Assembly: GCA_965208325.1 (NCBI GenBank) | Contig: OZ242326.1 | Span: 4,512,001 to 4,576,000, forward strand | DNA: 64,000 nt | Direction of reading: 5' to 3' | DNA from: Candidatus Poribacteria bacterium | GTDB taxonomy: Bacteria; Poribacteria; WGA-4E; PCPOR2b | Shown: positions 21,748 through 46,754 of the stretch, piece by piece | Numbering within the stretch: position 1 is the first letter of the stretch | Layout: every line of letters starts with the position of its first letter | Notes under the pieces: model-generated | Seen by the model: only the letters and a program-made list of their open reading frames with translations | What the model was told of the DNA's origin: nothing | Databases searched by the model: none | Made by a program: the position numbers and the translations under genes

Positions 21748-23430
21748 TTAACCCGCTGCGTCTTGATGCCGATGGCGAGGTCCATTTAGCAACGTGCCGA
21801 CCGGTGTATAGCGCACCAAGTATTCGTAAGTCACCAACAGCACCGCTGTGGTAACGACACATATCAGACTGAACTTTAGCAGCGCCGGAAGCTGCCAAGA
21901 CCTTATTAGCCATTGCGCGATGACGATTAGTGGGAGGTGCGCCAGATAAATCCAGTAAGATGCATCCGAGACATACCGCCACACTCTGCTGCCTTTAACT
22001 ACCAGCCGACGAAACGCACCCATCAAGGAAAACACCATCATCCAAGCGAACAGTGCCTGCGCGGTGACCGAGACGATATGATTTGGCACTGCCGGATCCG
22101 CCGACCAGCCGAGCGTTAAGCCGATGGGGGAGACAATTAGCAAGGTTACGGGCAGGGTGAAGATCCACCGTTTGCCGACTTTTCCAGTCTCGTCATTGGA
22201 ATCGTAGTAGAGCGCGCCGAAGAAAAAGAAGATGGCGTAATAAAAGAGCATGTGCGGTTTAGGTAAAAAATTGGCTGAAAGGTCTGGACCAAAATGCGGG
22301 ATTTTGCCTTGGGCGCCCATAAACCATTGCGGCAGCATCGTGAGCGGAATGAGCCACAGGCAGCGGCTCCACGGGAGTGCGAACCTATGAAGACGACGCG
22401 ACCAACCGGTTCGATCGTCGATGGCGGCATATAATGCGAAGGCAGCCACAAACCAGCATAGATACCAGAGGAACCAGAGGTGTGTGAGTATCTCGCCTCC
22501 GGTAAGGAAATTCCAAATGCGGCTCAAAATCTCGTAACTGGCGTACGCATCTTTGCTATCCGTTATTAACTCGTGATGCCCTTCTTGCGCCATGCGATCA
22601 CGGAGTATTTCAATTACCTCCGACCTGCCGGCTTTCACATTTTTCGAGTCAAATGAAATTTGCAAATAATTTGCGATTGCTCGTGTGTACGTCCAATTTG
22701 CTTGTGCGGTGTCCAGCGGCGTTTCACCGTTTAGGGTTTTGGCGGTGACATCTGCGCCGTAGTCCAGAAGCAGTTTTACAATCTCAAGCTGTCCCATGAA
22801 TGCTGCGGCGTGCAATGGCGTCGCCCCGTCCAAGTTTTTCGCGCCGATGTCAGCCCCTGCTTCAATGAGAAGTTCCGCTATTTCATCCTTTCCCTCAAGG
22901 GCTGCCCATGACAGCGCCGTAACGCCGAATTCAGAATCTGCGGCATTGGGATCGGCGCCATCCGACAAGTGAAGTTTGAGCGCTTCAACGTCTCCAGTTT
23001 TTGCTGCCGAGTAGACATCGCGGCGCCGAATTTCTGACGGTGAACTCGATTTGCCCTTGTCAGGCGTGACTGAAAAAGTGAAATTCGTCGCGGCAGCGAA
23101 GTAGCTAAAATGGGTAATAGGGACGATGGTAAACAGCCCCAAAATAAACGGGAGCAAGATGCGGCGAAACCGATGCCGCAAGAGCGACGCCAACCCTCGT
23201 TTGCGCCACAACATCGCCGTGAAAAAACCGCTCATGACAAAGAATACCGGCATTCGAAATCCGTGAATCAGCGCAAAAACGATACCGAGTCCGTCGGTTC
23301 GTTGCGTGTCTTGAACGGGCCAAATTGGCATATAAAAATATGCCATTGAAGCGTGCAATACGATGCCTAGCAGCATGGCGGCGGCACGCAAGGCATCGAG
23401 GTCGTGCCGCCGATTGGGAGGGGTGTTCAT
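21748..23430 (-). CDS. Acyltransferase-3 (OpgC/MdoC-like) membrane protein with inserted ankyrin repeats
   Basis: RRHDLDALRA..MLLGIVLH, HGFRMPVFF.MSGFF, HLWFLWYL, ASYWIYLAH; ankyrin units G.TALSWAA and GATPLHAAA. Confidence 0.9.
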   Translation of the reverse strand: MNTPPNRRHDLDALRAAAMLLGIVLHASMAYFYMPIWPVQDTQRTDGLGIVFALIHGFRMPVFFVMSGFFTAMLWRKRGLASLLRHRFRRILLPFILGLFTIVPITHFSYFAAATNFTFSVTPDKGKSSSPSEIRRRDVYSAAKTGDVEALKLHLSDGADPNAADSEFGVTALSWAALEGKDEIAELLIEAGADIGAKNLDGATPLHAAAFMGQLEIVKLLLDYGADVTAKTLNGETPLDTAQANWTYTRAIANYLQISFDSKNVKAGRSEVIEILRDRMAQEGHHELITDSKDAYASYEILSRIWNFLTGGEILTHLWFLWYLCWFVAAFALYAAIDDRTGWSRRLHRFALPWSRCLWLIPLTMLPQWFMGAQGKIPHFGPDLSANFLPKPHMLFYYAIFFFFGALYYDSNDETGKVGKRWIFTLPVTLLIVSPIGLTLGWSADPAVPNHIVSVTAQALFAWMMVFSLMGAFRRLVVKGSRVWRYVSDASYWIYLAHLPLIVIAQWLIRSWQLPALLKFSLICVVTTAVLLVTYEYLVRYTPVGTLLNGPRHRHQDAAG

Positions 23431-23484: not shown

Positions 23485-23563
23485 AAGACTATCGCCTTCG
23501 CTATTCGCTCAGTTGATCCTTCGCTGTTCGTTCAGTTGATCCCTCCTTATTAAGGCGGGGAAT
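23485..23563 (+). repeat. Dispersed repeat aagactatcgccttcgctattcgctcagttgatcc followed by a CCTT.TTAAGG hairpin
   Basis: Related copies near 451, 643, 9021, 43059, 49524, 49675 and 50364. Confidence 0.85.
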
Positions 23564-26500
23564 GATGATTTTGTTCGGTTTCAAGGTTTTCAATCACCAG
23601 CCATGTGACGAGTTCGAAGTCTGTTGCGCCGCTAACCTGATCGGTTACAAGGGGCAGGGCGCCGCCGCGGCCTGATGTGAGGTTGTCGAATGCGCGTTTT
23701 CTGTAGGTCTGGGCGATAGATTTTACGGTCTTGTCAAGAAGGTCGTCGTATTGGGACATGTCTGCGCCGTTAGCCGTGCGTTCGTCGAACAGCGCACAGA
23801 GTTCGTCATAGGGTCTATTATTGCCAGAGCAGAGTTGGCGGTACATTTCCAGAATTTGTTTGGGATAGGCGAAGGAAAAACGCACAACCCCATCGTTCCG
23901 AACATAGACGAGGAAATAGGGTTGGGTGGGATTCAGGTTCCGGTTTTCATCCGACTCGGTTTTCTGGCGCAAGCAGAAGATGACACCGGGTTGAATTATC
24001 GGGTCATTTGGAGGCGGCGGCACGACGGCATAGAGCCCAAAAGGCGATTCCTCAAGTTTTTTTCGGTTACTTTCAATGTATTTGATGAGTTCCATACGGA
24101 AATCGTCAAGCGTGAACTCGTTAAGGGCAACACTTTCGGTAAACTCTTCAAGGTCAAGGACTTCATCCTTGAGCCGAAGCAGTTGTTGGTCACGGTATCG
24201 GAGATCGCCTTCGATAACGTCGTGAAGTGCATCGGGATCGAGCAGGTTATCTCCCTGTGTGGCGGTGACATCCACGAGGGCCATCCGTGCTTCAACCCGG
24301 TTTTTGAGGTTAATGTAACGATTCAGATCTTCGGTGGGCCAGAAATTCACCAAATGCACACTGTTATTGACGCTTCCAATTCTATCAATCCGTCCGAACC
24401 GTTGGATGATGCGCACCGGATTCCAGTGGATGTCGTAATTGATTAGGTAGTCGCAGTCTTGGAGGTTTTGTCCTTCCGAGATGCAGTCGGTGCCGATCAG
24501 CAGATCAATCTCCTCGTTCTGCGGCATTGAGGCGATGCCGGCGCGGTTCTTCGCAATCGGGGAGAAGTTGGTGAGAATGTCGATGAAGTTGGTCCTGCCA
24601 AGCGTGGTTTTGTTCGCGCCTGCGCCGGTCACCATCCCGGTGTGGATATTCAGTTTTGCCGCAGCCCATTCATGGAGTGCGCCGTAGAGGTAGTCGGCGG
24701 TGTCGGCAAATGCAGTGAATACAAGCACCTTGCGATTCGGTTTATTTTCCTTCGTGGTAGTCGGATTGTTGACCTTCGCCTGAATCAGTTCTTTGAGTTT
24801 AGCGAGTTTGGCATCGCGGTGCATGTTGATTTTTTTTGCCGAACGGTAGGGGCCTTCAAGTTGGTCTCGGTCATGTTGTAAATCCTCGAGCCACCGCTCA
24901 ACGTCAAGGTGCGCCATCTTGAACTTTAGGCTTTTACCAACCTGCATTGCCGCTTGCAACTCTTCATCTTCGAGAGCATCAATATCCACGTCGCCTAAGT
25001 CCGCATCCGGGTTTTCGCCGCGGTATTCCTGAAACCGCCGGATTCGACCTTCCAAATCGTCAATTTTTTCAAGCGTACGTTCCAGCGTAATCTTAAAGGA
25101 GTGAACAGAACTCTCCAAGCGTTTAAGAAAATTCACTTTCATCATGCCGATTAGGTAGTATTCGCGGTCACTCTGCGTAAAGTGATTGATGTGCCCTAGG
25201 TCGTATTCGGAATGGTGTTCGGGGCGGAGATATTTGGTCGGATTGTAGAGGGAGAGCTGATACTGCGAAATTTCCGCGTTTAGCTCGTCGTAAGACATGA
25301 ATTGACCGCGTGTATCAATGTCCGGATAAACGGGTTCGGGTTTACTACGCTCCGGGAACCCGCCCAATTCCTTCAGTGAGCTAGGATAGTATTTTTCAAT
25401 CTGTTTCCGGGAACGGGCGATTGTCAACCCGTCAAGCAATCTGAAGAAGGAGGTGCTTAGTATTTCAAGCAACCCTTGACTGCTTCGCGCTCCATCCTGT
25501 TTTGCCCACCTGTTGAAGGCGGTTTGGGCGGTTGAGATGGTTTCTCTCAGATTAACGACACCGAGCGATTCCTCGAAAGCGTCGTCACGCTCTTCGGTGA
25601 GAAAGTAGAGTTGGTTGCGCAGATCCCTTAGGTCGTTGTTTACGGGCGTCGCGGACAGCAGCAACATCTTGGTCTTTACGCCGCTCTTGACGATGTCTTC
25701 CATCAGCCGCTCGTAGCGGGATCGGCTAATGGGAACGCCGTCCTCGTCCCGTTTTCCGCGGGTGTTGTTTCGGAAGTTGTGCGACTCGTCGATAACCACC
25801 AGCCCGTAGTTTCCCCAGTTAAACGATGCAAGGTTAATACTGTCCGACATACCGCTGCTCCGGCTCAGGTCGGTGTGCGACAGAACGGTGTAACCGAAGC
25901 GGTCGTTGGGGAACGGATTAAACTTGTTTCCGGTGTGCGCTTGGTAGAGCGTCCAGTTCTCGCGCAATTTCTTGGGGCACAGCACCAGCACGTTTTCGTT
26001 GCGGAGTTCGAAGTATTTTATCACCGCCAACGCCTCGAACGTCTTGCCCAAGCCGACGCTGTCAGCGATGATGCACCCGTTGTGCGTCAAGATTTTGTTG
26101 ATGGCGCCTTTCACGCCGTCCTTTTGAAATTCATAGAGAACTTTCCAGATTTGGGTATCAACCAGTTGCGGCGGTTCGTCCAGCAGACCCCAACCCTCCT
26201 GGTCGCCCAAATATTTTTCGAAAAGGTGAAATAGCGTCTTGTAGTATATGAATTCCGGATCGTGATTCTCATAGAGCTGGTTAAGGTAGGCCAATACCTC
26301 TTCCTTGACATCCTTCACGCGGCTCTTGTCATACCAGAGTTCATCAAACCACAATTTCAAGTCGTTCAGGTCGCGCCTGTCTTCCACCGTCAGATTGAGT
26401 TCAATATTACCCGCTGTTTGACTTAACCCTAAACCCCGAACGGTAAAATTTGAACTGCCGAGGATGGCGTTTTCAACGCCGTTCTTAGCGATGTGGTACA

Positions 26501-26882
26501 TCTTGCCGTGCAGCAAATTTGATTCACGGATTGACCGCACCTCTACTTTCTCCCCAATCCAGTCAGCGCATTCTCGCGCCACCTGCTTGAGTTGAAGTTG
26601 GTTCTTCAACTGCAAACCGTCAGCGTTTATGATGAATGATTTCTTCTCTGTTTTATCGGGATCAAGCCCTTGGATGAACCGGGGTTCGCCAAATAGGAAG
26701 CGAAGGTCATTGATTTGATACAGGGATGATTTCAGCGCCTCGAACGCGTAAATTGTAAAGTAAGCGGATACAACCGAGAGTGACGTACCGTTTTCGATTT
26801 GCGACTTCAGAAACTCACCGACCGTACCGCGCTCGCGGTTATCGCGGATGCCGGACGGGAATAGTGTCGTGTTTTCTGGCAT
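23550..26882 (-). CDS. PLD-nuclease / SNF2-type helicase fusion (restriction-associated)
   Basis: LHGKMY and GSSNFT (PLD); ADSVGLGKT, IDESHNFRN, LLSATPVNN, SEGQNLQD, QRFGRIDRIG (SF2 motifs). Confidence 0.92.
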   Translation of the reverse strand: MPENTTLFPSGIRDNRERGTVGEFLKSQIENGTSLSVVSAYFTIYAFEALKSSLYQINDLRFLFGEPRFIQGLDPDKTEKKSFIINADGLQLKNQLQLKQVARECADWIGEKVEVRSIRESNLLHGKMYHIAKNGVENAILGSSNFTVRGLGLSQTAGNIELNLTVEDRRDLNDLKLWFDELWYDKSRVKDVKEEVLAYLNQLYENHDPEFIYYKTLFHLFEKYLGDQEGWGLLDEPPQLVDTQIWKVLYEFQKDGVKGAINKILTHNGCIIADSVGLGKTFEALAVIKYFELRNENVLVLCPKKLRENWTLYQAHTGNKFNPFPNDRFGYTVLSHTDLSRSSGMSDSINLASFNWGNYGLVVIDESHNFRNNTRGKRDEDGVPISRSRYERLMEDIVKSGVKTKMLLLSATPVNNDLRDLRNQLYFLTEERDDAFEESLGVVNLRETISTAQTAFNRWAKQDGARSSQGLLEILSTSFFRLLDGLTIARSRKQIEKYYPSSLKELGGFPERSKPEPVYPDIDTRGQFMSYDELNAEISQYQLSLYNPTKYLRPEHHSEYDLGHINHFTQSDREYYLIGMMKVNFLKRLESSVHSFKITLERTLEKIDDLEGRIRRFQEYRGENPDADLGDVDIDALEDEELQAAMQVGKSLKFKMAHLDVERWLEDLQHDRDQLEGPYRSAKKINMHRDAKLAKLKELIQAKVNNPTTTKENKPNRKVLVFTAFADTADYLYGALHEWAAAKLNIHTGMVTGAGANKTTLGRTNFIDILTNFSPIAKNRAGIASMPQNEEIDLLIGTDCISEGQNLQDCDYLINYDIHWNPVRIIQRFGRIDRIGSVNNSVHLVNFWPTEDLNRYINLKNRVEARMALVDVTATQGDNLLDPDALHDVIEGDLRYRDQQLLRLKDEVLDLEEFTESVALNEFTLDDFRMELIKYIESNRKKLEESPFGLYAVVPPPPNDPIIQPGVIFCLRQKTESDENRNLNPTQPYFLVYVRNDGVVRFSFAYPKQILEMYRQLCSGNNRPYDELCALFDERTANGADMSQYDDLLDKTVKSIAQTYRKRAFDNLTSGRGGALPLVTDQVSGATDFELVTWLVIENLETEQNHHSPP

Positions 26883-29153: not shown

Positions 29154-30625
29154 CTACTGCGGCGGCGTCAGCATGGCGGCGATGTCTGCAGGTAGTTTTA
29201 CGCCATTGCATTCCTCGAAGTCTGAGACGCTTTCGCAGAAGAAATGAAATGCGGTGATAATATCCATCCCCATGTCCTTGGCTTTTGTTAGGTCTGCCCT
29301 TGCTTTTTTCCATTCGCCTAGGTGTAACTGCGCTACTCCGCGTCCGGCATAAGGCTCAGCAAGGTCAGGTTTAAGTTCTATTGCTCTGTTGTAATCTTCA
29401 AGCGCAACGTCAATTCTGCCTCTTTTGGTGTAAGCATTACCACGATTGTTATAAGCCTCAACGAGATCACGTTTCAGTTCTATCGCCTTGGTATAACCTA
29501 CGATAGCACGGTCAAAATTGCCTTTTTTGATGTAGGCAATCCCACGGTTGTAATGCGCTTCGACAAAATCGGGCTTCAACTCTATCGCCTTGTTATAGTC
29601 TGCGATAGCGCGCTCCGCGTCGCCTTTTTCGCGATAAACGGCACCACGATTGCTATAAGGCTCAGCGTAGCTAGGATCCAGCTCAATCGCCCTATTACAG
29701 TCTTCAATCGCACGGTCATACTCGCCTAGGATGCGGTAAACCGAACCACGATTGTTGTAAGCGAAGACATCATCTGGTTTCAGTTTTATTGCCATGCTAA
29801 AATCTTGAATTGCAAGATCGTATTCACCTTTATCAGCATAAGCAATGCCGCGATTATTATAGGCGATGACAAATTTGGGCTTCAATTCTATTGCTTTGCT
29901 ATAGTGTGCAATTGCATTATCGTAATGCTCAAGATTCGCTTGTGAGTTCATTCTTCGGGTCTCCTGTTGGTTGCTGGGTTGAACCGACATAAAATTCAAT
30001 ACAGGCAATCTGGTGCAAGTCCTGTTTTCTAATGAACCCATGGAGGTCATTGTAAATGGTTTCTGTAGATATACCGTGATGTTTGTCCAAGTAGCTTAAT
30101 ATCGGTTGTTTGAGGTGTGCCGGAATGACGATTACTTCGTCCGGTTCAATAAATCCTGCGAGTGGTCGAACAAATATGCTCTTCTGGGCTATGATGCGAT
30201 TTCGTGGGTTCTGAGGTTTTCTCTTAACTCGATTCTCGTCCTGTGATTCCTCTCCCATAAGGATAACTCTGCCTGCTTTGTCAAAGAAGCGATCGCAAGC
30301 GAAGAATAGGGCTATGTGATTGTCGGTCGTAAAATCTATGAGATTGGTGTGCCCTCCATAGTGTTGAAGTTCTGCCCAGATTTCAATCTCCTCTTGTTCG
30401 GGGGTATAGTTTTTTGCCGAGTCCAGTATTAGTCCTTCGATCGCTTGTATATCGAAATCCTCGGTTCGCATTTTTTTCTTGCACTCACGCCAAAGACTTG
30501 ACGAAACTTTTCTATAGCGCCTCGGTTCACCGCGGTAGATATAGTTGCCTCTGGCTGTTTTTTCTGCTAACTCACGAAGGATTTCCAAAACAGCGTTTAA
30601 GCTATCTTGCGGATTGGTTTTCCAT
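29154..30625 (-). pseudogene. FRG-TPR fusion gene disrupted by apparent frameshifts (track ORFs 29929-30702 and 29154-30050)
   Basis: FRG part (YIYRGE, LQHYGG.TNLIDFT, NRIIAQKSIF, IYNDLHGFI) and TPR part are colinear with intact 37028-38752 but in different frames. Confidence 0.8.
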
Positions 30626-30706
30626 GCTGAAGATTTTTTCCCGAAAACGGATATTTCTTCATTGTCTGAATGGCTAATTGGCGCGGATTTGACGGATGAC
30701 ACAGAT

Positions 30707-32213: not shown

Positions 32214-33638
32214 TTATGAATTTCCCGATAATTTGGTTTTAAGTTTTTCCACGGCATCTATCGCATCGGAAATTTCCTTTTTGACCAAAGGGACAATGTG
32301 GGAATGGCTGAGCGGGTTAAGGATTATACTTCGGTACAGTTCGATGTCGTCAATGAGGGTTTGTTCTAAGAAGGGTGTACAATCGCTTGTACTTCCCTGT
32401 TTTATTGGATCCCAGAAATCTTCACTTTGCAATTTTTTCGGATTGTCACTGTATGTTACTCGGAGTTTATTCGTTGCGCAGAATTTCTTGATAGCAGTTT
32501 CAAAGGCGGTGCGCAGGTAGATTGCGCTGGCTTTGTAGTCGTTGTCGTCGAAATAGTCTTTCGCTTTCTCAAGATACGCTTTATCTTCTGCATAGACCGG
32601 AATCTCGTATTCATCGGTTTTCGAGGTATAAAATTCGGCGTATTTCCATTTCGCATCGGGCGTCCGCTGTTTGGCAATCTCATACCACGTTTTATCATAG
32701 GTCGTCAAAAAGATTTGGTGGTCTGGAAAATACTCGTTTAAGATATCAAGCACCGGCAGGCGGTTTGACGTATCCAAGCCGATTAACACATCGTCCAAGG
32801 CGAGAATCTTCAGGCGGCTTTCCGGTTGAATCAGGATTGACGAGAAATAGATTGCGATAGCAATCGCCGATAACCTCGCCTCGTTGAGGAAGCGGTGATG
32901 TTCGGGAATATTTTTATCAAAGAGCTCAATCGTTAACAGAATTTCCTGATTATCAAGCGTTTTGTTGTCACGGTTGTATTGAACGCCCGGAAAATCGAAG
33001 TTAAGGGCAACGTTGTGTCCAAACTTGCCAAGGATTTCAGATGCGATTGGCTGAAGTTCCGCTAATCTATTTGTTAATTCGGTATTGAAGGCTTCTGTCT
33101 GTTTTTCTAAATCTGAAATTTTGCCTGTAGCGTTTCGACGTGGATACGGCGGCTGAATTGCAGCCCAATCGTCGTCAAGGGTCCGATTCGTCAGGGTACT
33201 GACGGTGTTTGCCAAGAGCGTCTCAACCAGCAAATCGAACACATTAACTGTATCACTTTCACGATGGAGGTAGTGCGTGTCCAAAAGCGACTTATAATCG
33301 AGAAAACCCTTTGCCTTCGATGCCTCAATAATCAGTTCGTCGTCCGTTTCTCTAACGCTCTCCGACCATTCGTAGGTCTCCTGTTTTGACCAGCGATCAG
33401 CGCGGAGACACAGTTTTATATAGCCCGCATCCGTAGTAAAGATATTTTGATCGTTTTCAAATCTATGCGACGGATCATCGCCGGATTCCAAGAACAGTTT
33501 TAACGCAAAATACAGGGACGATTTTCCGCTCCCATTTTCACCGTAAACCAGCAAGTTCTTTCCTTTGTTGTGTAGGTTAATTCGGTATGTTCCGTAAAAG
33601 GCTTTGAAATTTTTGATTTCAATTTCGGTAATTCTCAC
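32214..33638 (-). CDS. ABC/SMC-like ATPase with a C-terminal HEPN-like domain (RloC/PrrC-like architecture)
   Basis: GENGSGKSS, FLNEARLS, ILALDDVLIGLD; C-terminal ASAIYLRTAFE...YRSIILNPLSH. Confidence 0.8.
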   Translation of the reverse strand: MRITEIEIKNFKAFYGTYRINLHNKGKNLLVYGENGSGKSSLYFALKLFLESGDDPSHRFENDQNIFTTDAGYIKLCLRADRWSKQETYEWSESVRETDDELIIEASKAKGFLDYKSLLDTHYLHRESDTVNVFDLLVETLLANTVSTLTNRTLDDDWAAIQPPYPRRNATGKISDLEKQTEAFNTELTNRLAELQPIASEILGKFGHNVALNFDFPGVQYNRDNKTLDNQEILLTIELFDKNIPEHHRFLNEARLSAIAIAIYFSSILIQPESRLKILALDDVLIGLDTSNRLPVLDILNEYFPDHQIFLTTYDKTWYEIAKQRTPDAKWKYAEFYTSKTDEYEIPVYAEDKAYLEKAKDYFDDNDYKASAIYLRTAFETAIKKFCATNKLRVTYSDNPKKLQSEDFWDPIKQGSTSDCTPFLEQTLIDDIELYRSIILNPLSHSHIVPLVKKEISDAIDAVEKLKTKLSGNS

Positions 33639-36600
33639 GCCTTATCCTCAATTATACGGATCGGTTCTACACTATCCAGAAAGAAAAGGTTGATCCGGAT
33701 CTGATGTGTTCTTTCATACAATCGCTCGAAGATTTCCTGTAACGATACCATTTTATCACCTCGAATTTCTTCAATCTCCGGCAACCCTTCGTCTAACAAT
33801 GGTTTGAAGAACTGTTTATCCCCGTGATGCAGTTCTTCACTCAGATAGGATTCATAAACCAGTCCGTCAACGATTCGTTCAAAATAGCCGAGCATTATGA
33901 AGTCGCGGGCGTGTGCCAAATCTTTGCCGCTCGTCGTCGGCTGTCCCTGAAGGTAAATGAGGTAATCGACAATTTTACCAATCAGTGATTTCTGCGTTGG
34001 TGTAAGATCGGGAACAGGGATTTCCTGCATATATCGGCTGCGCGCCCGAAGATAATCGCCAGTTAATTGATCTGACACTTGCGAATAGAACCACTCCACA
34101 ACACGGGAATTGAGGAGACCGCACAACCACGTCTCCTCAGTCGGGATAAGGTAGCATGTATCCCCGCAGAAAAGACCTTCCGTATCGACGGCGAAGGATT
34201 GACGGTCGTAGCTGTTTGGGCAAACCAACTTCGTTTGCGTAAAGCGTTCGGCGTCGCTTTTGGCGGCGGGTAATTCATACCATTTCTGTTTACCCGTTCT
34301 TTTGCTCAAGGGGGCTCTATATTTTTCCAAGTGTTTTCGGATGGCGGGATAACGGTCTATCTCTATGCGACGATAGGCAAAAATCAACCATGTATCCGGT
34401 TTTGCTACCCTCCAACGCCTGATATCCCGTCCGTGCAAAAACGGCTTCAAAACTTCAGTGGATGCAGGGTGCTCCGCAATGAGTCGATCTCGCGTCGCGC
34501 TATCTACGACAAAGGCTCCGCTGCTACCGGTCTTGATTCCGAAAGTAGGACGCGATTGGACGTATTGAGACAAAGGTGTGCCCGCGTTGCGTAGTTTCGC
34601 TAGGAGATTCAACACATCGGACGATTCAAGGGGCGTACCTTCGAAACTCGAGAATTTTTCCGTCTTTGGGAATCGACTCCGCCGCGGTTGCGACAGCATG
34701 TCAGCGATGTCCATCGGCAGATTCACACGATGTCTCTTCTCGAAGGCCTCAACGCTTTTGTAGTCGTTTTGGAATCCGGCGATGATATCCACACCGTTGT
34801 CTTTAGCAGTGTTCAAATCCTTGCGGGCATTTTCCCATTCTTTCAACCGTAACCACGCTTCACCGCGATTATAATAGGCGGCGACAAAAACCGGCTCCAA
34901 GTTTATCGCTTTGTTATAATTTTCAATGGCACGGTCAATCTCGCCTTTGCTATAGTAGGCTACTCCGCGATTGTTATAAACAATGGAAAGCCGCGGATTG
35001 AGTTCTATTACTTTGTTAAAGTCAACAATGGCACGGTCATGTTTGCCAATGGTGATATAGGCATTGCCCCGACCATTATAGGCTTCGACAAGATTCGGTT
35101 CGAGCTGTATCGCCTTGTCAAAGTCGGCGATGGCACGGACATAATCACCTTTGTTGCGGTATGCGGCACCGCGATTGCTATAAGGCTCGGCGTAATCGGG
35201 TTTGAGTTCTATCGCACGGTTACAGTCTACGATGGCAAGGTCAAAATCCCCCTTTCCCCGATAGACAGCACCGCGATTGTTGTAAGCTATGGCATAATCG
35301 GTTTTGAGTGCTATAGCCTGGTTAAAGTCTTTAAGGGCAAGGTTTACCTGATCTTTTTTGCCGTATGTGATACCACGACTGTTGTATGCCTCGGCAAAAT
35401 CTGGTTTCAGTTGTATTGCCACGTTAAAGTCTTCAACAGCACGGTTAAAATCACCCTGTTCGTCGTAGGCAATACCGCGATCGCTATATGCTATGGCAAA
35501 ATCGGGATTCAGCTCTATCGCTTTATTGAAGTCGTTGAGAGCAAATTGAACATTACCTTTGTTCTTAAAAGTAACGCCGCGATTGTAGTAGGCGTTCGCA
35601 TAACCGGGGTTGAGTTGAATTGCTTTATCAAAGTCTTTGATGGCACAATCGAAATCCTCTTTGTCATGGTAAGCCCCCCCACGATTATTATATAGCTCGG
35701 CGAGGTTTGGTTTCAATTGTATTGCCTTGTTAAAGTCTGTAATAGCACGATCATATTCCCCTTTTGCTTTATGAACATTACCACGACTATTGTAGGCGAT
35801 GGTACAATTAGGATTGAGTTCTATCGCCCTGTTAAAATCCTCAATAGCGTGGTCAATCGCACCTTTTTCATGAAAAGCATTTCCGCGATTGACATATTGA
35901 TCGGGAAACTTTGGACTCATTTTTATCGCTGTATCAAAATCTACGATAGCCCGGTCAAACTCGCGTTTCTTTTGGAAAGCAATACCGCGGTTGTTATAGA
36001 CATCAGCATGATTGCGTCCGCGTTGGATTGCCTTGTTAAAATCTGAGATGGCTCGGTTATAATCGCCTTTATTGTCGTAGGCAATGCCACGATTGTAAAA
36101 GGTTTCGGCATAATTGGGATTCACCTCTATTGCTCTGTTAAGGTCTTCGAGACCGCGGTCAAGTTCCCCTTTGTCAACGTAAGCAGCACCACGGTTGCTA
36201 TAGATAACCGCGTCATACGGGTTTATTGGTATCGCCGTGTTATAATCTTTAAAGGCGCGGTCAAAATTACCCAACTTTTGGTAAGCTACGCCGCGATTGT
36301 TGTAGGCATCGGTATCACGTGGATTGAGTTTAATTGCCTGTGAATAGGCTTCTATCGCCTTGTCTATTTCTCCGAACATCATGAAAACGTTGCCTTGTTG
36401 GAATGCCAATTCAGCAAGTAATTCATCGCCAAAAGCGCTGGAAGCTGAATCCGCGTGAGATAGCATTTTGTCGACGACTTTTCGGATACCCGTCACTACA
36501 TTTTGCCAACCTTTGCTCTGAGGCCTCCACTCGTTAATGGGCTTGACTTTGTGCGGCAGAACCTCAAACCGACTGAGTTGATGATGCTCCCAATCACAAG

Positions 36601-36892
36601 CCTCAAGGATGATAGAGATGACTCTTATGTTTGCGCGTAAGACGTCAGCTAATTCTTTATTACAGTTTTTCGACGCGAGACTCGCAGCGGAGGTAAGATA
36701 AAGTAAAATGTCCGATTCGGCAAGATTATCTGAAATATCTTTTTCCCACTCGTCGCCCGGAAGAATTTTGTTATCGTCCCACAACTCTATCTTGCCTTCA
36801 TCCGCCATTACAGCAAGGCGCGTTTGCAATTCGATGTTCTGCTGTAGGTCTTTATGTGAATATGTAATGAATACTTTTAGTGCGTTGTTCAT
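33635..36892 (-). CDS. TIR - 16xTPR - type IIG RM target-recognition (TaqI_C-like) fusion protein
   Basis: TIR: VFITYSHKD, W.D..I.PG.EW, S...LAS..CNKEL. Sixteen TPRs. C-terminal ~325 aa paralogous to the C-terminus of 38886-42605. ATG at 36892; the upstream extension in the track is translated repeat. Confidence 0.9.
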   Translation of the reverse strand: MNNALKVFITYSHKDLQQNIELQTRLAVMADEGKIELWDDNKILPGDEWEKDISDNLAESDILLYLTSAASLASKNCNKELADVLRANIRVISIILEACDWEHHQLSRFEVLPHKVKPINEWRPQSKGWQNVVTGIRKVVDKMLSHADSASSAFGDELLAELAFQQGNVFMMFGEIDKAIEAYSQAIKLNPRDTDAYNNRGVAYQKLGNFDRAFKDYNTAIPINPYDAVIYSNRGAAYVDKGELDRGLEDLNRAIEVNPNYAETFYNRGIAYDNKGDYNRAISDFNKAIQRGRNHADVYNNRGIAFQKKREFDRAIVDFDTAIKMSPKFPDQYVNRGNAFHEKGAIDHAIEDFNRAIELNPNCTIAYNSRGNVHKAKGEYDRAITDFNKAIQLKPNLAELYNNRGGAYHDKEDFDCAIKDFDKAIQLNPGYANAYYNRGVTFKNKGNVQFALNDFNKAIELNPDFAIAYSDRGIAYDEQGDFNRAVEDFNVAIQLKPDFAEAYNSRGITYGKKDQVNLALKDFNQAIALKTDYAIAYNNRGAVYRGKGDFDLAIVDCNRAIELKPDYAEPYSNRGAAYRNKGDYVRAIADFDKAIQLEPNLVEAYNGRGNAYITIGKHDRAIVDFNKVIELNPRLSIVYNNRGVAYYSKGEIDRAIENYNKAINLEPVFVAAYYNRGEAWLRLKEWENARKDLNTAKDNGVDIIAGFQNDYKSVEAFEKRHRVNLPMDIADMLSQPRRSRFPKTEKFSSFEGTPLESSDVLNLLAKLRNAGTPLSQYVQSRPTFGIKTGSSGAFVVDSATRDRLIAEHPASTEVLKPFLHGRDIRRWRVAKPDTWLIFAYRRIEIDRYPAIRKHLEKYRAPLSKRTGKQKWYELPAAKSDAERFTQTKLVCPNSYDRQSFAVDTEGLFCGDTCYLIPTEETWLCGLLNSRVVEWFYSQVSDQLTGDYLRARSRYMQEIPVPDLTPTQKSLIGKIVDYLIYLQGQPTTSGKDLAHARDFIMLGYFERIVDGLVYESYLSEELHHGDKQFFKPLLDEGLPEIEEIRGDKMVSLQEIFERLYERTHQIRINLFFLDSVEPIRIIEDKA

Positions 36893-36902
36893 TTTCTTTT
36901 TT

Positions 36903-36977
36903 CTGTCTGAATCGCGGATTGAGGAAAAACACGGATTGAAGAATCCGCGCAATCCGTTTCATACGTGATTCAGACAG
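36903..36977. repeat. Complete palindromic copy of the CTGTCTGAATCRCGGATT repeat
   Basis: ctgtctgaatcgcg...cgtgattcagacag. Related copies near 26935, 27584, 29020, 30663, 31823/31856, 32089 and 38792-38893. Confidence 0.9.
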
Positions 36978-37027
36978 TATTTTCCTCCTCAATCGCAATT
37001 ACCTCAGAGTCTGATGCCCGGCAAACT

Positions 37028-38752: not shown

Positions 38753-38885
38753 TTTTTTTTATTCCTCCAGAATTATATATTGTTTGTTGGCATCTGAATC
38801 GCGAATTGCCTACACCTCAAAGGATTTCAACAGATATAATCCGCGCCACGAAGTTGGACTATCTTCAATGTGCGTAATCCGTGAT

Positions 38886-41800
38886 TCAGACAGTATTTTT
38901 CTCCACGACCGCAATTTCTTCATCAGATAAATCGTACAATGAGTATACTATCTGATCAATCTCATTTTCAAGTTCGGATACATCGGCGTCCGGGTCAGCG
39001 CGTTTGGCAGCGAGGATTTGATTGACTATGTTGGTGATGGACGCTTTTTGCGCTGGTTTGATAGAGGGAATAGGAATCTGAGAAACATATTGAGCAATAA
39101 ATCTCACAAAGCCACCCCGAATCTGCGTGCTTGTCTTTGTATAGAACCAAAACACGGTTTTGCTATTGAGCAAACCTAGAAGCCACATTTCCTTAGTCGG
39201 TAGAAGGTACAACGTGTTACCCAAAAAATAACAGTCATCATCGAAGGCAAATTCGGCTCCTTGTGCGATATCAGGGTAGACAATTTTCGTTTTCTCAAAC
39301 TCTTTCCAATAAGCACACGCTCGCAACTCCCAGAAATACTTCCCCTGATCGTACCGCTCAATGAGTCGGTCTCGAAAGGTTTGTAGGCGGGCGTGGATTG
39401 CGGGATACGTATCGGCAAAAATCGCCTCCGCCTCTACGGCAGATTCCTCCGACCACGGATGCGTCCGATTTTCCGACGATTCAATTTTGATGAGGTACTG
39501 CTCGGCGAAATTCACACCCCAGCGTTTCACATCTCGTCCGCGCAATAACGGTTTTAACACTTCAGCCGATGATGGATGATCCGCAATGAGTTGATTCCGC
39601 GTCGCTAGGTCCACAACAAATGCTTCGTTCAAACCTGTTAGGACACCTCGATAAAACCTTCCTTTGACATATTCCCCTAACGGTTTACCCGTGTTTCGGA
39701 GTTTCTTCAGCAGGTCTAACATTATTGGGGTGGTGAGCCGCCAACCGTCAGCGGTCAAGGCGTTTTGCGGCATGGTGAACCCCCGTGTTCGAAACACCGT
39801 CCCGAATTCGTCAATAGAGGACCCCGGCTCCCAATTCAGGGCGCGGAGATGATTCCCTTGAGCGTGGGGTTTGGACGCTGTGATAATACTTGGATAAGCA
39901 ATTGACGTAAAAACGGGGGCATCACCAAAGTCGATGAGTTGAGATACAGTGGATTTACAGGCGAGGAAATCTCGAAGTTTCTTACCGTATGCAGCTCGGA
40001 AATACTTATTGGACGAGATGTAGGTCAGGACTCCATTATCCGGCAGTAATTGAAAACCGCGTTCATAAAAATAGACGTAGAGATCGGCTGTGCCGGTGTA
40101 ACAGTCGTACTGCGTTTTCAACGTCGGCTTGAGATCTTTAATTTTCTCTTGGCGAACATACGGCGGATTGCCAATCACCACATCAAACCCTTCGGCGATA
40201 CCAAACATCCATTCTGGGTCAAACCAATCTGCTTCTTTATTCTGATCGTAGGGCTTCCAACTTGCGATTTTGCTGGCGTCTTGAAAACTGGAATCAAATT
40301 GGTTCTTACGCGCCTTATACTTTTTTCGTTCCTCCTTTAGTAACTGTTGGCGATGTTCAGTTTTCGGAAGTTGTGCGACTTTTCGGTCTATTTCTCGTTT
40401 CTGACGCTCCATCCATGATGCTCTCCGGCTGTCCAGTTCTTCTTGCAACCGTTCGCGACTTTCGTCCTCCAGCTCTTCGAGGTGAAGCTTCTGTCGTCGA
40501 TTATTTGTTAGATAATACTTTTCACGAATTCCCTCTATTTCTTTTATTAATTGCCGTACAGCGTCCTCTTGGAGTAACAATCGGGTTTCGGCTAACTGCA
40601 AGCCAATCAGCGTATTCGCGGCAACGAAGCGAGTTTCTAGATTCGGCAGGGGCTTAATTCCGAAATTGGCAACGGTCTCATCTACGACCTGTTCAATAGC
40701 AAGCGAGACAAAGAATCGGAGTTTGGCGATCTGGCACGCCTCAGGTTGGATGTCGACGCCGAAGATGCTGTTTTGTATCAGATACAACTTCCGTCCAAAG
40801 TCTGAATCGCGGTAACGTTCAAACGTATCACTAATTTCCTTCAGTTCGTCATCGCGCGCCTGCTGGTTTGAGATTTTGAACGCCGCCTGCGCCCGACGCC
40901 CGGCGCGGTCGCGCTGTAACTGTTCCCAAAGCGTGTTATCCGGATCAAGCCGCCGCAGCGCAAGGGTCAATTTGTGCAGCACACCCATCGGAAACGCGCC
41001 GGAACCGACCGCAGGATCCAGTATCTTCAGATTTGAAATCGCCCGTACAAGCCCGTTTATCTCATCGTCATCAAACCATTCGCTCGCATCGTCGCAGACT
41101 TGGGCATAATCCAACAGATAGTGCAATCGTTCATTCCAGAGTTTCACATCATCGTCCGTTGGCGACACTTGTTCTCCCAGCGTTGCAATTAACGCTTCCT
41201 CTACCATGTAGTCTACAATAGGACGCGGGGTGTAGTAGGAACCAGTCTGTTTACGTTTAGTTTCCCCAGTTTCAGGATTGTATGCGGCAAGCAGGTTTTC
41301 GAACACCTTGCCGAGCAGTTCAGGATCCAGCGCAACCTCCTGCTCTATCGGCGTGCTTTCCTCAACGGTAAACTTGTAGTGCGTCAGCAAGGAAATCAGA
41401 CCATCGTCACCAAAGAACAGACGGTTGGGAAGGCTAAGTTTTCTGAAATGCTCATCGGAAAAACAGTCAATGCGGGAACCTCCCGCTCTCATGCCCTTGA
41501 AGTCGTCCAGACAATCGAACAACCCTCCGTTGATGAATGGTGTTTTGCCAAACAACGCTTCAAGCGAATCCGGGTCATTCATCTGATCTTTGTAGCGATA
41601 TACGGAGAAATTTCGATGGTCGGGTTTCCCTTTACTGAACCGACGCTCGTCAATCTCGGTGTTCAACGTGGCAAAGAACAAGTTCTGTAATACCGCACGG
41701 TAGTAGGAATCTCCATTGTCACGATTGTAGTCCTTTAGCAAGAGAGTAACTTCGCGTTCGTCGAATAGTTCCTCCGCAACCAACCCCTTCTCTTTAATAA

Positions 41801-43192: not shown

Positions 43193-44473
43193 TCACCTCG
43201 TGTCGAGATGGGTGGTGTACCAGAGGCTGCCTGTTGGAATCCCTTCTGAAGAATGGTTGCTTACGGCGGGATGGTCGCTGGCGCGACGGATTGTGGAGTA
43301 GCCGTCCTCGCCCTTGTCTAGGATCCAGACCTCGTTCGGCTCCAACAGATCGACAAAATACGGCTGGTGCGTCGTGATGAAGACTTGCGATCCGCCTCTG
43401 CGCCCGGTGACGTATTCACGGAACTGTTTGGCGAGCGACTCCAAGAGTTTGTGGTACAAACCGTTTTCGGGTTCTTCGATACAGAGGAACGGGGGCGGCG
43501 CCGGGTCTTTTAGCAGCAGCAGGTATGCGAATAGTTTTAGTGTTCCGTCGGACATCTGCTGGGCGTAAAACGGCGCGCGAAAGCCTTTGTCGTTGAACCT
43601 GAGGAGCAGACGCCCGTCACTGGTTCTTTCCGTGTCGATCTGATCTACGCCCGGGATCTTGTCGGCGATCTCTTTGAGAATCGCGCCGAATCGGCGCGGA
43701 TGTTCGCGTTCCATGAATTGGACGACGTTGCCGAGGTTATCGCCGTGGATGTTGAGATGCTGCTGGGGACCGGCGCGCGGCAGGCTGCGCGCCGCGTCCG
43801 GCGTGAAGTAGCTGAGATACCAGCCTTCAATGAATTGCCGGAAAGCCGAGATTCGCGGGTGTTGTTTCAGGGCGCCGAGCGTGGCGATGCCGAGTTTGCT
43901 CCGATCTTCCAATTCGATGATTTCGGTCTGGCTGGATTCGTCCGCAATAATCAGCTTGATGAGTTCCGGGAAATCGAGTTGCTCCATCTTTTCGTCAATC
44001 TGATGACCCGCCTGTTTGCCCTTCCACGCCACGCCTTTGCCGCCGTTCAGGAACAAGAACGAGAATGGGCGGCCGTATTTCTGGCCTTTGCGCCTCTGTC
44101 TGAGGCGCTCTTTCAAGACAAACGGGCGTCCGGTCTCCTCTACGGCGATGGCGATTTCGTAAGTCATGGGCCGGGCGTTTCCGTGCTCTCTATAGTACAC
44201 CTCAAACTCGATGGGATCGGACTCGCCTTGTGTACGGATTTGCTCGAACCCGCCGCGTCCGCGCGTACCGCACGCCTCCTCAACGCCGGTCTTTAGGGCG
44301 TCAGCGAGGAAACCGAACGCATCGAAAAGCGCGCTTTTGCCGACGCCGTTCTTGCCGATGACTGCGGTCATGAGCGTGAGCGGTTGTATTTCCCGTTGGT
44401 TCCAAAGGCGCCCCAATGTCACATCTTTGAGTACCTTGAAGTTTTTTACTCTGAAGCCTTCGATTTTTGCCAT
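43193..44473 (-). CDS. AAA_21-type ABC ATPase (defence-associated predicted ATPase)
   Basis: GKNGVGKS, MSDGT, IEEPENGL, TTHQP. Confidence 0.9.
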   Translation of the reverse strand: MAKIEGFRVKNFKVLKDVTLGRLWNQREIQPLTLMTAVIGKNGVGKSALFDAFGFLADALKTGVEEACGTRGRGGFEQIRTQGESDPIEFEVYYREHGNARPMTYEIAIAVEETGRPFVLKERLRQRRKGQKYGRPFSFLFLNGGKGVAWKGKQAGHQIDEKMEQLDFPELIKLIIADESSQTEIIELEDRSKLGIATLGALKQHPRISAFRQFIEGWYLSYFTPDAARSLPRAGPQQHLNIHGDNLGNVVQFMEREHPRRFGAILKEIADKIPGVDQIDTERTSDGRLLLRFNDKGFRAPFYAQQMSDGTLKLFAYLLLLKDPAPPPFLCIEEPENGLYHKLLESLAKQFREYVTGRRGGSQVFITTHQPYFVDLLEPNEVWILDKGEDGYSTIRRASDHPAVSNHSSEGIPTGSLWYTTHLDTR

Positions 44474-44520: not shown

Positions 44521-45522
44521 CTACGCTGATGCCATCCGCGCCATTATCTTATCTGCTAATTCTTTGAAATCACGACGGGCGGCATTTGCCGCAACGGCAT
44601 GGCTTCCGATAGCTCCGTCAGCGGGAGTGAGGTGAAAGATGGGCTTTCGCGCTTCCTGCGCCATTGGCACCAAGCTCCGGTAGTGCTTAACAGTGGCGAG
44701 GGCATTTGCTTTATCCTGTTCCGGCGTCTGAGGGTAAGGTCCGTCGTTGTCATCGAGCAGATTTCGTGCATATTCCTCCGGCATGCGGTTGACCCATTTG
44801 TCATACGCCTTAACAGGCCGCCCCAAGCGGACGCTGTGCTGCTGTACCACATAGCCAATTGGTTGAATTAATCCGCTAGGTATAGGTAGGTCAGAGATAG
44901 GGTTGCGGTCGTATCTATCCAACCACCCATTGCGCCAATCGTGCAGCGTTGGACCGAGGTTCCGCAACCCTTGAAGCGAGAATAGATCTGCTCCAAGTGG
45001 AACGATAACGTAATCTGTCGCCACTAGCACTGCCCTATTCAAAGCGCCTAAATTAGGGCCGACATCTACTAAAACAATCTCGACCTGATTACTTTCCGCC
45101 GCGTTTTGCAAAATGCGCCATAGCGCCGAAATTACCCGGAAAGCACGAGGGCGCCTATCAAGGCACTCTGGCCATTGGCTGGAAAGTTCATCTTCTGTGG
45201 CTGATAAAGCGAGGTCCCCCACGATGAGACTCAATTGCGGCGTAAAAATCTCCAGATGAGGATTTTCAATGTCGCCAGTTCCGTCTAAAAGCGGTTCAAG
45301 TGCACTATAGATGGATTTTCGGGGCCCATTGTCGGGCCAGAGTATTTCTAGTTGGTCTTCATTGATAAACATGCTCGTTAGGTTTGCCTGCGGGTCGAGA
45401 TCACAGGCAAGGACGCGGTGACCGATGTCGGAAAGCATCCACGCTAGATGATAAACTAACGACGTTTTGCCAACACCGCCTTTGTTGTTAAAGAATGTTA
45501 AAACTGGAACCGGCATTGTCAT
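44521..45522 (-). CDS. ParA/Soj-like ATPase (orphan)
   Basis: FNNKGGVGKT, DLDPQANLT, DVGPNLGALNR; ATGA overlap with the upstream gene. Confidence 0.9.
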   Translation of the reverse strand: MTMPVPVLTFFNNKGGVGKTSLVYHLAWMLSDIGHRVLACDLDPQANLTSMFINEDQLEILWPDNGPRKSIYSALEPLLDGTGDIENPHLEIFTPQLSLIVGDLALSATEDELSSQWPECLDRRPRAFRVISALWRILQNAAESNQVEIVLVDVGPNLGALNRAVLVATDYVIVPLGADLFSLQGLRNLGPTLHDWRNGWLDRYDRNPISDLPIPSGLIQPIGYVVQQHSVRLGRPVKAYDKWVNRMPEEYARNLLDDNDGPYPQTPEQDKANALATVKHYRSLVPMAQEARKPIFHLTPADGAIGSHAVAANAARRDFKELADKIMARMASA

Positions 45523-46754
45523 GTCCTCACAGGATTTCTGGCGATTTTAATTGTAGTTAGCACGTAACTGCCATTTACCTTAAATTCGGGTTCCGGGTGT
45601 CCGGCTGCTTTGAGCGACATTCTAGCAATCGGTATTCCCATGCCGTACCGCTGCACAAAACCGAGGTTTTTCATGGCTTCCGCTAAATTGGGGTTACGAT
45701 AGTCGGTAAGACCGGGGTGACCGAAATTCTCGGTGGTCACAGCCCCGAAGGCGCCGCCAGGGCTCAACACCTCAATGCGGTCATTGAACCACGACACACG
45801 AATCGGCGCATTGGTTGCTTCGTAGCTCCTATGCATCACCGCATTCCGAGTAATCTGTTGCACCGCCATCATGGGATAAAGCGATGTTCGTTGTTCGACG
45901 TTACTCGTCGTAATATCGACAGCGATGCGGTTGTGCGCGTTTAGTTTATCGTCGAGACGGCGAAGAAGGTCCGGAATTGCGCCGCGAATCTCCTCACTGT
46001 CAACTATATCGTCGGTTAGCTCGCCGCCATCAATTTTGAGGAACTGGACGTAAGCGCCGGGAAGAAAATCTTGTGTATTCTTACCAAGCACCAGGATTCC
46101 GAGCACTGTTGCGATTCGTCCATCGCCTGGAGCGATCATTTTAGTTGCAGCCAATCGTTCCTCAGGAGTGCGTTCATTGGCTTCCAATATTTCCGTAGGG
46201 ACAACCTGCGGCAGATATTCATTCTCGAACTGCGCAAGGTTTAGGTCAGAGATGCCGGCTGTGGGGATAGGATTTATGTCGAAGGGGATATCTCCATATC
46301 GCCGCTTTTCGTTGAGAATGCTTTCCTCCTGCGCTGTCGCGATGCCGCGGCGCGGACCAATACGGATATGGATAACACCCTTGTACCGAACCGGCGGCGA
46401 GTTAGATGGTTGCACCGTGACCAATGCAATTTGCCTTCCGCCCAGCACACACTTTTCAACGGTTAGTGAAGGCGGCGGTACGATATTCCCGTCGGTTTTC
46501 ATATCAGCCAATTGGCGGAGCAATTCGTTCGTGACAGTTAACCCCGCGATAGATTTGTCGTTCCGTACCCCGACGAAAACAAAGCCTGGTTTTTCGCGGC
46601 GCGGCAAATCGTTGGCAAATGCACAGATGGCTTCCCTGATTTCTTTCGGGGCACTGCCGGATAGTGCCTCTTTGAACTCAACTCGGTCGGCTTCATCGTC
46701 TTCTATAATTTGCAGCAGTTCCTTATCTGTAAGATTCGGCATATCAATTCCCAC
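45519..46754 (-). CDS. AlbA_2 (Schlafen-like) plus HATPase_c_4/RecG_C domain protein
   Basis: E..RVEFKE, ICAFAN....G..FVGV, NAVMHRSY, DRIEVLSPGG, YRNP.LAE......VQRYGMGI. Confidence 0.88.
   Translation of the reverse strand: MGIDMPNLTDKELLQIIEDDEADRVEFKEALSGSAPKEIREAICAFANDLPRREKPGFVFVGVRNDKSIAGLTVTNELLRQLADMKTDGNIVPPPSLTVEKCVLGGRQIALVTVQPSNSPPVRYKGVIHIRIGPRRGIATAQEESILNEKRRYGDIPFDINPIPTAGISDLNLAQFENEYLPQVVPTEILEANERTPEERLAATKMIAPGDGRIATVLGILVLGKNTQDFLPGAYVQFLKIDGGELTDDIVDSEEIRGAIPDLLRRLDDKLNAHNRIAVDITTSNVEQRTSLYPMMAVQQITRNAVMHRSYEATNAPIRVSWFNDRIEVLSPGGAFGAVTTENFGHPGLTDYRNPNLAEAMKNLGFVQRYGMGIPIARMSLKAAGHPEPEFKVNGSYVLTTIKIARNPVRT

Follow-up and report, generated by a model that had tools for sequence, protein, structure and literature searches.

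A TIR-TPR protein ending in a type IIG target-recognition domain, and its partner ABC ATPase, in Candidatus Poribacteria: a candidate restriction-derived defence module

PrrC and RloC are Rad50-like ABC proteins that carry a HEPN domain. Such ABC-HEPN proteins are common in restriction-modification (RM) operons, and one HEPN family often tied to restriction systems is DUF4145 (excerpts of PMC3710099). PrrC, with its Arg320-Glu324-His356 triad, is latent on EcoprrI as long as no phage inhibitor acts (excerpt of PMC1484252). Here we describe a locus that may be a relative of this arrangement, built from rather different parts. It lies in a stretch of 64,000 nucleotides from a Candidatus Poribacteria bacterium (assembly GCA_965208325.1, contig OZ242326.1, positions 4,512,001 to 4,576,000), which we call the window and number from its first letter. 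A gene for a protein with a TIR domain, a TPR array and a target-recognition domain (TRD), P0001, overlaps a gene for an ABC ATPase, P0004. The fusion of TPR array and TRD is conserved and under purifying selection, and its TRD and tail resemble the C-terminus of type IIG restriction enzymes from end to end.

Several other described systems share parts of this layout. PARIS, which consists of the ABC ATPase AriA and the TOPRIM protein AriB, also uses an ABC ATPase as a sensor scaffold and reacts to anti-restriction proteins (excerpts of PMC11464382 and PMC12707154). However, the AriA match in P0004 is confined to residues 3-64, the operon has no TOPRIM gene, and the partner is a TRD. As in Thoeris, the TIR of P0001 is of the ThsB type and has the conserved Glu, but Pfam and PADLOC scans of 11 neighbours at 20-56 kb showed no ThsA-type gene (SIR2 or Macro/SLOG). 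A TIR-TPR association in phage defence is described for BcTir/BcTpr (excerpt of 10.1101/2023.05.26.542521). Unlike in BcTir/BcTpr and Thoeris, the TIR and the TPRs stand here in one chain that ends in a TRD, is coupled to an ABC ATPase, and can have its TIR swapped for FRG, HNH or nothing. The layout of an effector head on a repeat sensor also recalls the Avs/STAND proteins and the plant NLR receptors with integrated domains, and the integrated-domain idea put forward in the initial annotation of this gene belongs with the latter. That said, Pfam found no P-loop or STAND NTPase domain (NACHT/NB-ARC) in P0001, the NTPase here is a separate ABC protein, and the integrated TRD tracks no neighbouring 'guardee' and falls in a separate clade.

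The initial annotation knew of no named system with this architecture, and we agree. Neither a TPR-TaqI_C fusion nor a type IIG + ABC-HEPN pair is described in the main texts of the literature that we searched, and PADLOC models match only parts of P0001 and P0004. We regard the finding as a variant of the restriction-linked ABC-HEPN guardian, with an architecture that is undescribed in the searched literature.

A conserved TRD-tail module on a changing front end

The open reading frame (ORF) of P0001 spans 33635-36952 (-) and encodes 1105 aa from a TTG that lies 20 codons upstream of the ATG at 36892. The ATG is the likely start, because it agrees with the database copy P0005 (1085 aa) and with the starts of homologues; residue numbers below nevertheless follow the 1105-aa form. 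The domain order read in the initial annotation holds up: Pfam matches TIR_2 at residues 27-129 (E 1.3e-12), TPR_1 in 15 stretches and TaqI_C at 836-980 (E 6.2e-15), although the 16 TPRs counted there are, by eye, 15 TPRs and a capping 16th. The absence of methyltransferase motifs is borne out too, as neither Eco57I nor N6_Mtase, nor any other methylase family, is among the Pfam matches shown (the best 25 of 33 families). Pfam likewise found no N-terminal nuclease and helical spacer of the type IIG kind; the first 757 residues are TIR and TPR. The TIR groups with ThsB-type TIRs (PADLOC ThsB1, E 3e-22) and looks catalytically competent from its residues, and the Glu of its CNKEL motif, rightly read as retained, is invariant in all 35 aligned TIR heads of the family.

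The TPR array closes with a cap at about residues 700-757, and the same cap is found in two proteins without a TRD, P0003 and P0275, both of which end a few residues past it. Homology to type IIG C-termini runs from residue 771 to the last residue. Because the TRD-less proteins end at the cap and the type IIG homology begins 13 residues on, we read P0001 as a whole head-TPR-cap protein joined by a short linker to a whole type IIG TRD and tail. PADLOC REase_MTase_IIG matches residues 777-996 only, and a profile of the family matches the TRD of M.BseCI (7qw5, residues 334-573) with an E-value of 2e-14. The helical tail that follows the TRD is common to one type IIG subfamily; the neighbouring enzyme P0002 is without it. 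An AlphaFold2 model of the C-terminal part, made with 37 close sequences, is poor (mean predicted local distance difference test score 55.8), with scores of about 60-93 over its residues 221-330.

The junction between TPR array and TRD, at 34684, is bridged by error-free contigs from two runs of different samples, X1 (34355-34991) and X4 (34621-34991); X1 may be the source sample. With these contigs, and with 123 open frames in 89 genomes, the junction is no assembly artefact, and the fusion is not peculiar to one assembly.

For searches we used the last 348 aa of P0001, TRD plus tail, as the query, hereafter the module. It is present in 90 of the 159 genomes of the order to which the window belongs (the window's own genome included), at one to four copies per genome. 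All 123 matches, at 47% identity or above, are open frames, of 249-1765 aa. At least 120 database proteins of 624-1156 aa match it at 79-100% identity, all with TPR families and PF12950. Between the module of the window and 12 distinct orthologues from the same taxonomic family, the ratio of nonsynonymous to synonymous substitutions (dN/dS) is 0.14-0.19 at dS 0.5-0.7, so the TRD is not evolving neutrally. Conservation is 0.66-0.93 in every 12-residue window of the module, even where type IIG C-termini vary most (0.25-0.45). The isoelectric point of the module is mildly basic (8.3 vs 6.7).

The taxon labels of 80 related loci are Candidatus or uncultured Poribacteria in 76 cases, Latescibacterota in two, 'Curvivirga' in one (a contig of 2.7 kb) and 'uncultured bacterium' in one. 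In the two Latescibacterota metagenome-assembled genomes (L066 and L076) the module is 67-70% identical and comes with its ATPase; in L076 the protein is cap and module only (424 aa). Their occurrence there could be due to transfer between phyla or to mis-binning.

The head on this module is exchangeable. Among 80 loci the head is a TIR in 34, a second type of TIR in three, FRG in 11 and HNH-like in one, and the other 31 have none or another head (four are truncated and one contains an N run). FRG is an ART-superfamily domain and a putative NADase (excerpt of PMC9503650). The number of TPRs also differs among members of the family. Of 13 pairs of loci with modules of 90% identity or more, six differ in head class, so the front end changes much more quickly than the module. 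Tandem head-TPR-cap genes are found in the window and in three relatives (L034, L036 and L047), and in each case the TRD-tail is only on the gene that adjoins the ATPase. Such a tandem layout would allow cassettes to be exchanged by recombination in the repeats or in the cap.

The initial annotation read the TRD as a copy of that of the neighbouring RM enzyme, P0002, a type IIG enzyme with a clear Eco57I domain (Pfam, 1e-42). The similarity itself is well past chance: residues 771-999 of P0001 and 953-1198 of P0002 are 40% identical over 246 aa (BLASTP, E 1e-51). However, the module is closer to an unrelated type IIG enzyme, P0137, with 45% identity over 336 aa, tail included, so the likeness to P0002 is ordinary family similarity and no special copy. 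A quick IQ-TREE of 61 rows puts the module family in one clade (SH-aLRT 99) and the C-terminus of P0002 elsewhere. The best relatives of the module outside the TPR proteins align end to end, tail included, and 10 of the 11 scanned have an Eco57I methylase domain. The derivation of the TRD from a type IIG enzyme is thus supported by sequence comparison. With enzymes of the Eco57I/MmeI kind P0001 shares the last ~335 residues, homologous from end to end; it differs from them in having no methylase domain and no nuclease region, and in that the variable segments of the TRD are frozen.

We examined 20 loci of 20 kb for co-directional type IIG genes upstream of the module. A gene or fragment is present in nine of them, unevenly spread over families (six of seven in f1, one of two in f2 and two of 11 in f4). 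In seven loci other than the window the adjacent TRD is 27-46% identical to the module, and in L048 and L049 tblastn found no match between the two, while the modules in the compared loci are 52-84% identical to that of the window. All eight complete adjacent type IIG genes that we examined have a TRD region of their own. We ruled out that the type IIG genes of L048 and L049 lack a TRD and depend on one supplied in trans, as both ORFs are full length (1268 and 1239 aa). Co-occurrence with type IIG genes, which the initial annotation suggested as a check, is therefore seen in part of the loci and absent nearby in 11 of the 20; the constant partner is the ATPase, which that annotation had overlooked.

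Paralogues of the P0002 kind are found in 133 of the 159 genomes, with up to eight matches per genome. For many of them the alignment is confined to the first ~724 residues (about 60-70% identical) and the remainder varies, as if specificity parts were swapped on a constant front. The genome of the window has a second such copy (G000:C1:440684-442852), 72% identical over residues 1-724.

The partner ATPase and its other contexts

Of the 123 modules, 104 are directly followed by a homologue of P0004, in 96 cases at a distance of 0-6 nt, and the ATPase is full length in 64 of 80 loci, irrespective of the head. Pfam matches SMC_N, AAA_23 and AAA_15 in P0004, and the Rad50 head 3qku is matched with an E-value of 2e-8. 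All 63 sequences compared, which range down to 28% identity, have the same residues at Walker A, Walker B, the D-loop and the Q-loop. In the C-terminal domain of the same sequences R376, E380 and H445 are invariant, and N441 and E455 are conserved in 97%. When C-domains were scanned singly, DUF4145 was matched in 14 of 53 (best 6.5e-5) and HEPN in nine of 53 (best 5.4e-5), and any other family in at most two of 53. An hhalign comparison with four genuine DUF4145 domains aligned both motifs (E 6e-4, probability 28.5%). A PDB profile search of the C-domain gave nothing meaningful (best E 0.079), and no relatives of P0004 were found in phage records at E<=1e-8. Among the named Atlas clusters, those nearest to it (scores 0.82-0.84) carry AAA_13, which is a lead only. 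A predicted complex of ATPase and module scored 0.00 in two runs without controls and has no bearing either way.

The association of TRD-tail and ATPase extends beyond the TPR fusion. A metagenome scan with the ATPase alignment gave 317 relatives, from which 80 loci were kept and 63 examined (sixteen were left out beforehand and one by a 700-nt rule). An ORF with a TRD-tail C-terminus ends at the start of the ATPase in 51 of the 63; in eight of the other 12 the TRD-tail ORF is one gene further upstream, and a type IIG-type C-terminus is within 5 kb of the ATPase in 59 of 63. Ten of these TRD-tail ORFs were scanned: eight are full Eco57I-methylase plus TaqI_C enzymes (1113-1371 aa), one is a bare TRD (347 aa) and one is truncated. 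On the Nostoc plasmid NZ_AP025734.1 a bare TRD protein of 338 aa overlaps an ATPase that is 48% identical to P0004, with no TPR at the locus and no annotated type IIG gene within 12 kb. TRD-tail and ATPase are therefore linked in three contexts, i.e. with a full type IIG enzyme, with a bare TRD and in the TPR fusion. This linkage in three architectures is our main argument, from gene order, that the two work together.

In eight of the metagenome loci (L166, L167, L169, L174, L178, L196, L198 and L203) the ATPase homologue extends 100-150 residues or more past the HEPN-like domain, and this extension may be a further C-terminal domain.

PrrC and RloC are the nearest described systems to this pair. 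As in PrrC/EcoprrI and RloC, an ABC/Rad50-like ATPase, here with a C-terminal domain that may be of the RNase type and has an R-x3-E...H set, is genetically linked to a restriction enzyme; the gene of P0004 directly follows the specificity-bearing part of such an enzyme. The concept of a latent second-line suicide nuclease is also shared (excerpt of PMC3710099). There are differences, however. The partner of the ATPase here is a type IIG C-terminus and that of PrrC is a type Ic complex, P0004 has no Pfam AAA_13 match at E<=0.01, and its Glu-to-His spacing is 65 residues, compared with 32 in PrrC. In the Poribacteria the restriction body is gone, with TPR and putative NADase heads in its place.

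The probable insertion site and the defence island

The coordinates of the features discussed in this work are collected in Table 1.

Table 1. Positions of the TIR-TPR-TRD gene, its parts and the genes around it in the window
Feature	Positions	Strand	Remarks
Headless TPR-cap protein P0275	30909..31760	-	Downstream of ATPase; homologue at the same place in L032
Rad50/SMC-like ABC ATPase P0004	32214..33638	-	474 aa; GTG start overlaps stop of TIR-TPR-TRD gene
C-terminal 145 aa of P0004	32217..32651	-	Probable HEPN/DUF4145-like domain
TIR-TPR-TRD gene (P0001)	33635..36892	-	1085 aa from ATG at 36892
C-terminal helical tail	33638..33982	-	Residues 991-1105
TaqI_C-type TRD	33983..34642	-	Residues 771-990; Pfam TaqI_C, E 6.2e-15
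Linker, cap to type IIG-derived part	34643..34681	-	13 residues, 758-770
TPR array	34682..36412	-	Residues 181-757; 15 TPRs, capping repeat and end-of-array cap
TIR domain	36452..36877	-	Residues 26-167; Glu of CNKEL catalytic-type; Pfam TIR_2
Orphan copy of type IIG 3' end	36961..37006	-	Last ~40 nt, stop codon included
FRG-TPR-cap protein P0003	37028..38752	-	TRD-less paralogue of the head-TPR part
Type IIG RM enzyme P0002	38886..42605	-	Eco57I-type methylase and TaqI_C, short tail

An orphan copy of the 3' end of the type IIG gene (36961-37006) matches the real end (38877-38922) over 46 nt at 85% identity, with a 25-nt core at 96%, and the two direct repeats bracket the FRG-TPR gene of P0003. 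In L035 a 64-nt copy of the type IIG end (94%) lies ~10.9 kb downstream of the type IIG stop, past the TPR-TRD gene and the ATPase, and in L033 a 28-nt copy follows directly after the ATPase. Copies of 25 nt or more were not found in six of the eight relatives examined. Because these orphan 3' ends flank inserted genes, in the window and in two of eight relatives, adjacency to type IIG genes looks like the mark of an insertion hotspot, and P0002 is probably an insertion-site neighbour and no obligate partner. A terminator-like hairpin with a T run lies at 36929-36950 (-), between the orphan copy and the ATG of the TIR-TPR-TRD gene; counts of promoter and terminator sites in the region are not above those of shuffled controls.

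The window is a defence island by its Pfam and PADLOC matches. Downstream of the ATPase, an FRG ORF (29929-30702) shares part of its span with a TPR-cap ORF in another frame (29154-30050), and the two together (29154-30702, -) look like one FRG-TPR gene with a frameshift. Further on is a protein of 1110 aa with an HKD (PLD) nuclease and an Snf2 helicase (23550-26882, -; PADLOC C3a139, E 1e-126), a homologue of which immediately precedes the type IIG gene in L036, and an Ank gene at 21748-23430. On the other side of P0002, an ABC ATPase at 43193-44473 (-) matches PADLOC HEC-01A (E 2e-185); HEC-01 would be expected to include a TOPRIM protein as partner, and it gave no protection in the assays reported in an excerpt of the HEC preprint. 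At 44521-46754 (-) a ParA-like ATPase is followed by a Schlafen/AlbA_2 + HATPase_c_4 protein, with overlapping stop and start, an architecture that is common around BREX-type systems (excerpt of PMC12839542).

Competing explanations and what the locus may mean

We favour, at a probability of roughly 0.55, the reading that P0001 and P0004 form a two-gene defence module which descends from a 'type IIG + ABC-HEPN ATPase' operon and probably behaves like PrrC, as a latent suicide module. A TPR array, a cap and an exchangeable head (TIR, FRG, HNH or none) would have taken the place of the nuclease and methylase parts of the type IIG enzyme in the Poribacteria lineage, and its final ~335 residues, i.e. 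TRD and helical tail, would have been retained in translational coupling to the ATPase. The TRD-tail would serve as a platform that docks or regulates the ATPase, and may still read DNA. Like PrrC with EcoprrI, the module would stay latent until a phage cue arrives: the TRD may respond to DNA or to an anti-restriction protein, or the TPR array to a protein of the phage. An ATP-dependent rearrangement would then turn on the TIR NADase and the HEPN-type RNase, with abortive infection as the outcome. P0002 would be the marker of an insertion hotspot, with no role as a guarded client.

Some of our observations fit this proposal poorly. About a third of the family (26 of the 75 complete loci) has no enzymatic head, so the NADase would have to be optional. 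In 19 of the 123 cases the ATPase is not downstream, so the module may also act alone. It is gene order only that points to physical contact between TRD-tail and ATPase, and on two plasmids, one of Bradyrhizobium and one of Nostoc UHCC 0926, a type IIG gene with a C-terminus that matches the module is followed by other genes and not by the ATPase; one of these two matches stops before the helical tail. The HEPN assignment draws on weak profile matches, with E-values of 0.03-0.07 for P0004 itself and the hhalign probability given above, and the Arg of the canonical Rx4-6H motif is not invariant. P0004 also does not match AAA_13 at E<=0.01, which we take to be the Pfam model of PrrC and RloC. 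For DNA binding by the module, the only pointers are the homology of its fold and an isoelectric point that is mildly basic. Finally, the genomes compared are related and are not independent samples.

The initial annotation proposed an integrated decoy or guard: the TRD would be a copy of that of the neighbouring type IIG enzyme, sense anti-restriction DNA mimics or unmodified target DNA, and then fire the TIR. The homology to P0002 would fit such a role, and the co-directional type IIG genes, which lie within 13 kb upstream in nine of 20 loci, are more frequent than a chance estimate of below 1% (based on 444 matches in 133 genomes). PrrC and PARIS have been termed 'RM guardian systems' (excerpt of PMC12707154), and a module that stays constant would make a fitting bait for inhibitors of the common TRD fold. 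We nevertheless consider a guard of the neighbour quite unlikely. The module clade is apart from the C-terminus of P0002, the module does not co-vary with adjacent TRDs, a nearby type IIG gene is missing from more than half of the loci and from the Nostoc pair, and adjacency depends on the family. The orphan 3' ends, moreover, bracket inserted genes, and the ancestral context is a complete enzyme with the same TRD-tail. A guard-like mechanism in another form, by analogy with PrrC, is possible. It is also conceivable, if rather unlikely, that the TRD-tail is a catalytically dead 'ghost' restriction enzyme displayed as bait. Anti-restriction proteins or DNA would then release NAD+ depletion by TIR or FRG and RNA cleavage by HEPN, and the tandem head-TPR-cap genes would be a store of cassettes for new fronts on the TRD-ATPase anchor.

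A further explanation takes the protein to be a DNA-anchored effector. Here the TRD binds specific DNA, the Rad50-like ATPase senses DNA or its ends, and clustering oligomerises the TPR-TIR part and so turns on the NADase, the C-domain of the ATPase being regulatory and no nuclease. The match of the TRD fold to M.BseCI, the mildly basic isoelectric point, the Rad50-like ATPase head and the freezing of segments that vary in type IIG enzymes, as fits one fixed target, all agree with it, and TIR NADases are activated by oligomerisation. On the other hand, a TRD without its methylase partner domain is normally a poor DNA binder. There is no evident mark of self and non-self, since the specificity of the module is unmatched to any adjacent methylase, and the headless members and the bare TRD of Nostoc lack a TIR that could be activated. 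In the C-domain of the ATPase, moreover, the set of invariant R, E, N and H residues looks catalytic. On balance we think this explanation unlikely. It is far less probable still that the TPR-TRD protein supplies a type IIG enzyme with its TRD, or competes with the enzyme's own, and so alters specificity. Separate specificity subunits do exist in type I and IIB systems, and type IIG paralogues are numerous here, but all eight complete adjacent enzymes have their own TRD region, the module is constant where type IIG TRDs vary, and many copies have no type IIG gene nearby. We give equally little credence to the possibility that the gene has no function of its own, as a relic of defence-gene insertions into a type IIG 3' end, or that it is a eukaryote-like TIR/TPR protein aimed at a sponge host. 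Orphan type IIG ends do mark an insertion hotspot, and TPR and ankyrin proteins are abundant in sponge symbionts, with the Ank gene of the window as an example. Against this, every one of the 123 copies is open, dN/dS is low, the catalytic Glu is invariant, and the gene sits in a defence island and is coupled to an ATPase. No secretion-related domain is among the Pfam matches shown for P0001, to which no signal-peptide predictor was applied.

If the proposed descent from a type IIG + ABC-HEPN operon is correct, the guardian principle would reach beyond PrrC and the type I enzymes to those of type IIG, with 317 ATPase relatives in metagenomes. A restriction enzyme would have been dismantled, keeping its DNA-reading tail and the ATPase, and its body would have given way to a repeat sensor with NAD-consuming heads. 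The full enzyme, the bare TRD and the TPR fusion would form a natural series in which the role of the TRD-tail towards the ATPase can be studied. With the minimal Nostoc pair and the type IIG pairs of the metagenomes, this idea is testable in ordinary laboratory hosts. Should the TRD-tail act as bait, the type IIG enzymes of the subfamily would all carry a PrrC-like guardian, and the fusion would be a bacterial counterpart of integrated-decoy receptors with swappable modules. More generally, a constant anchor with fast-changing heads and repeat numbers would be a clear example of modular evolution of immune proteins in an uncultured lineage of sponge symbionts.

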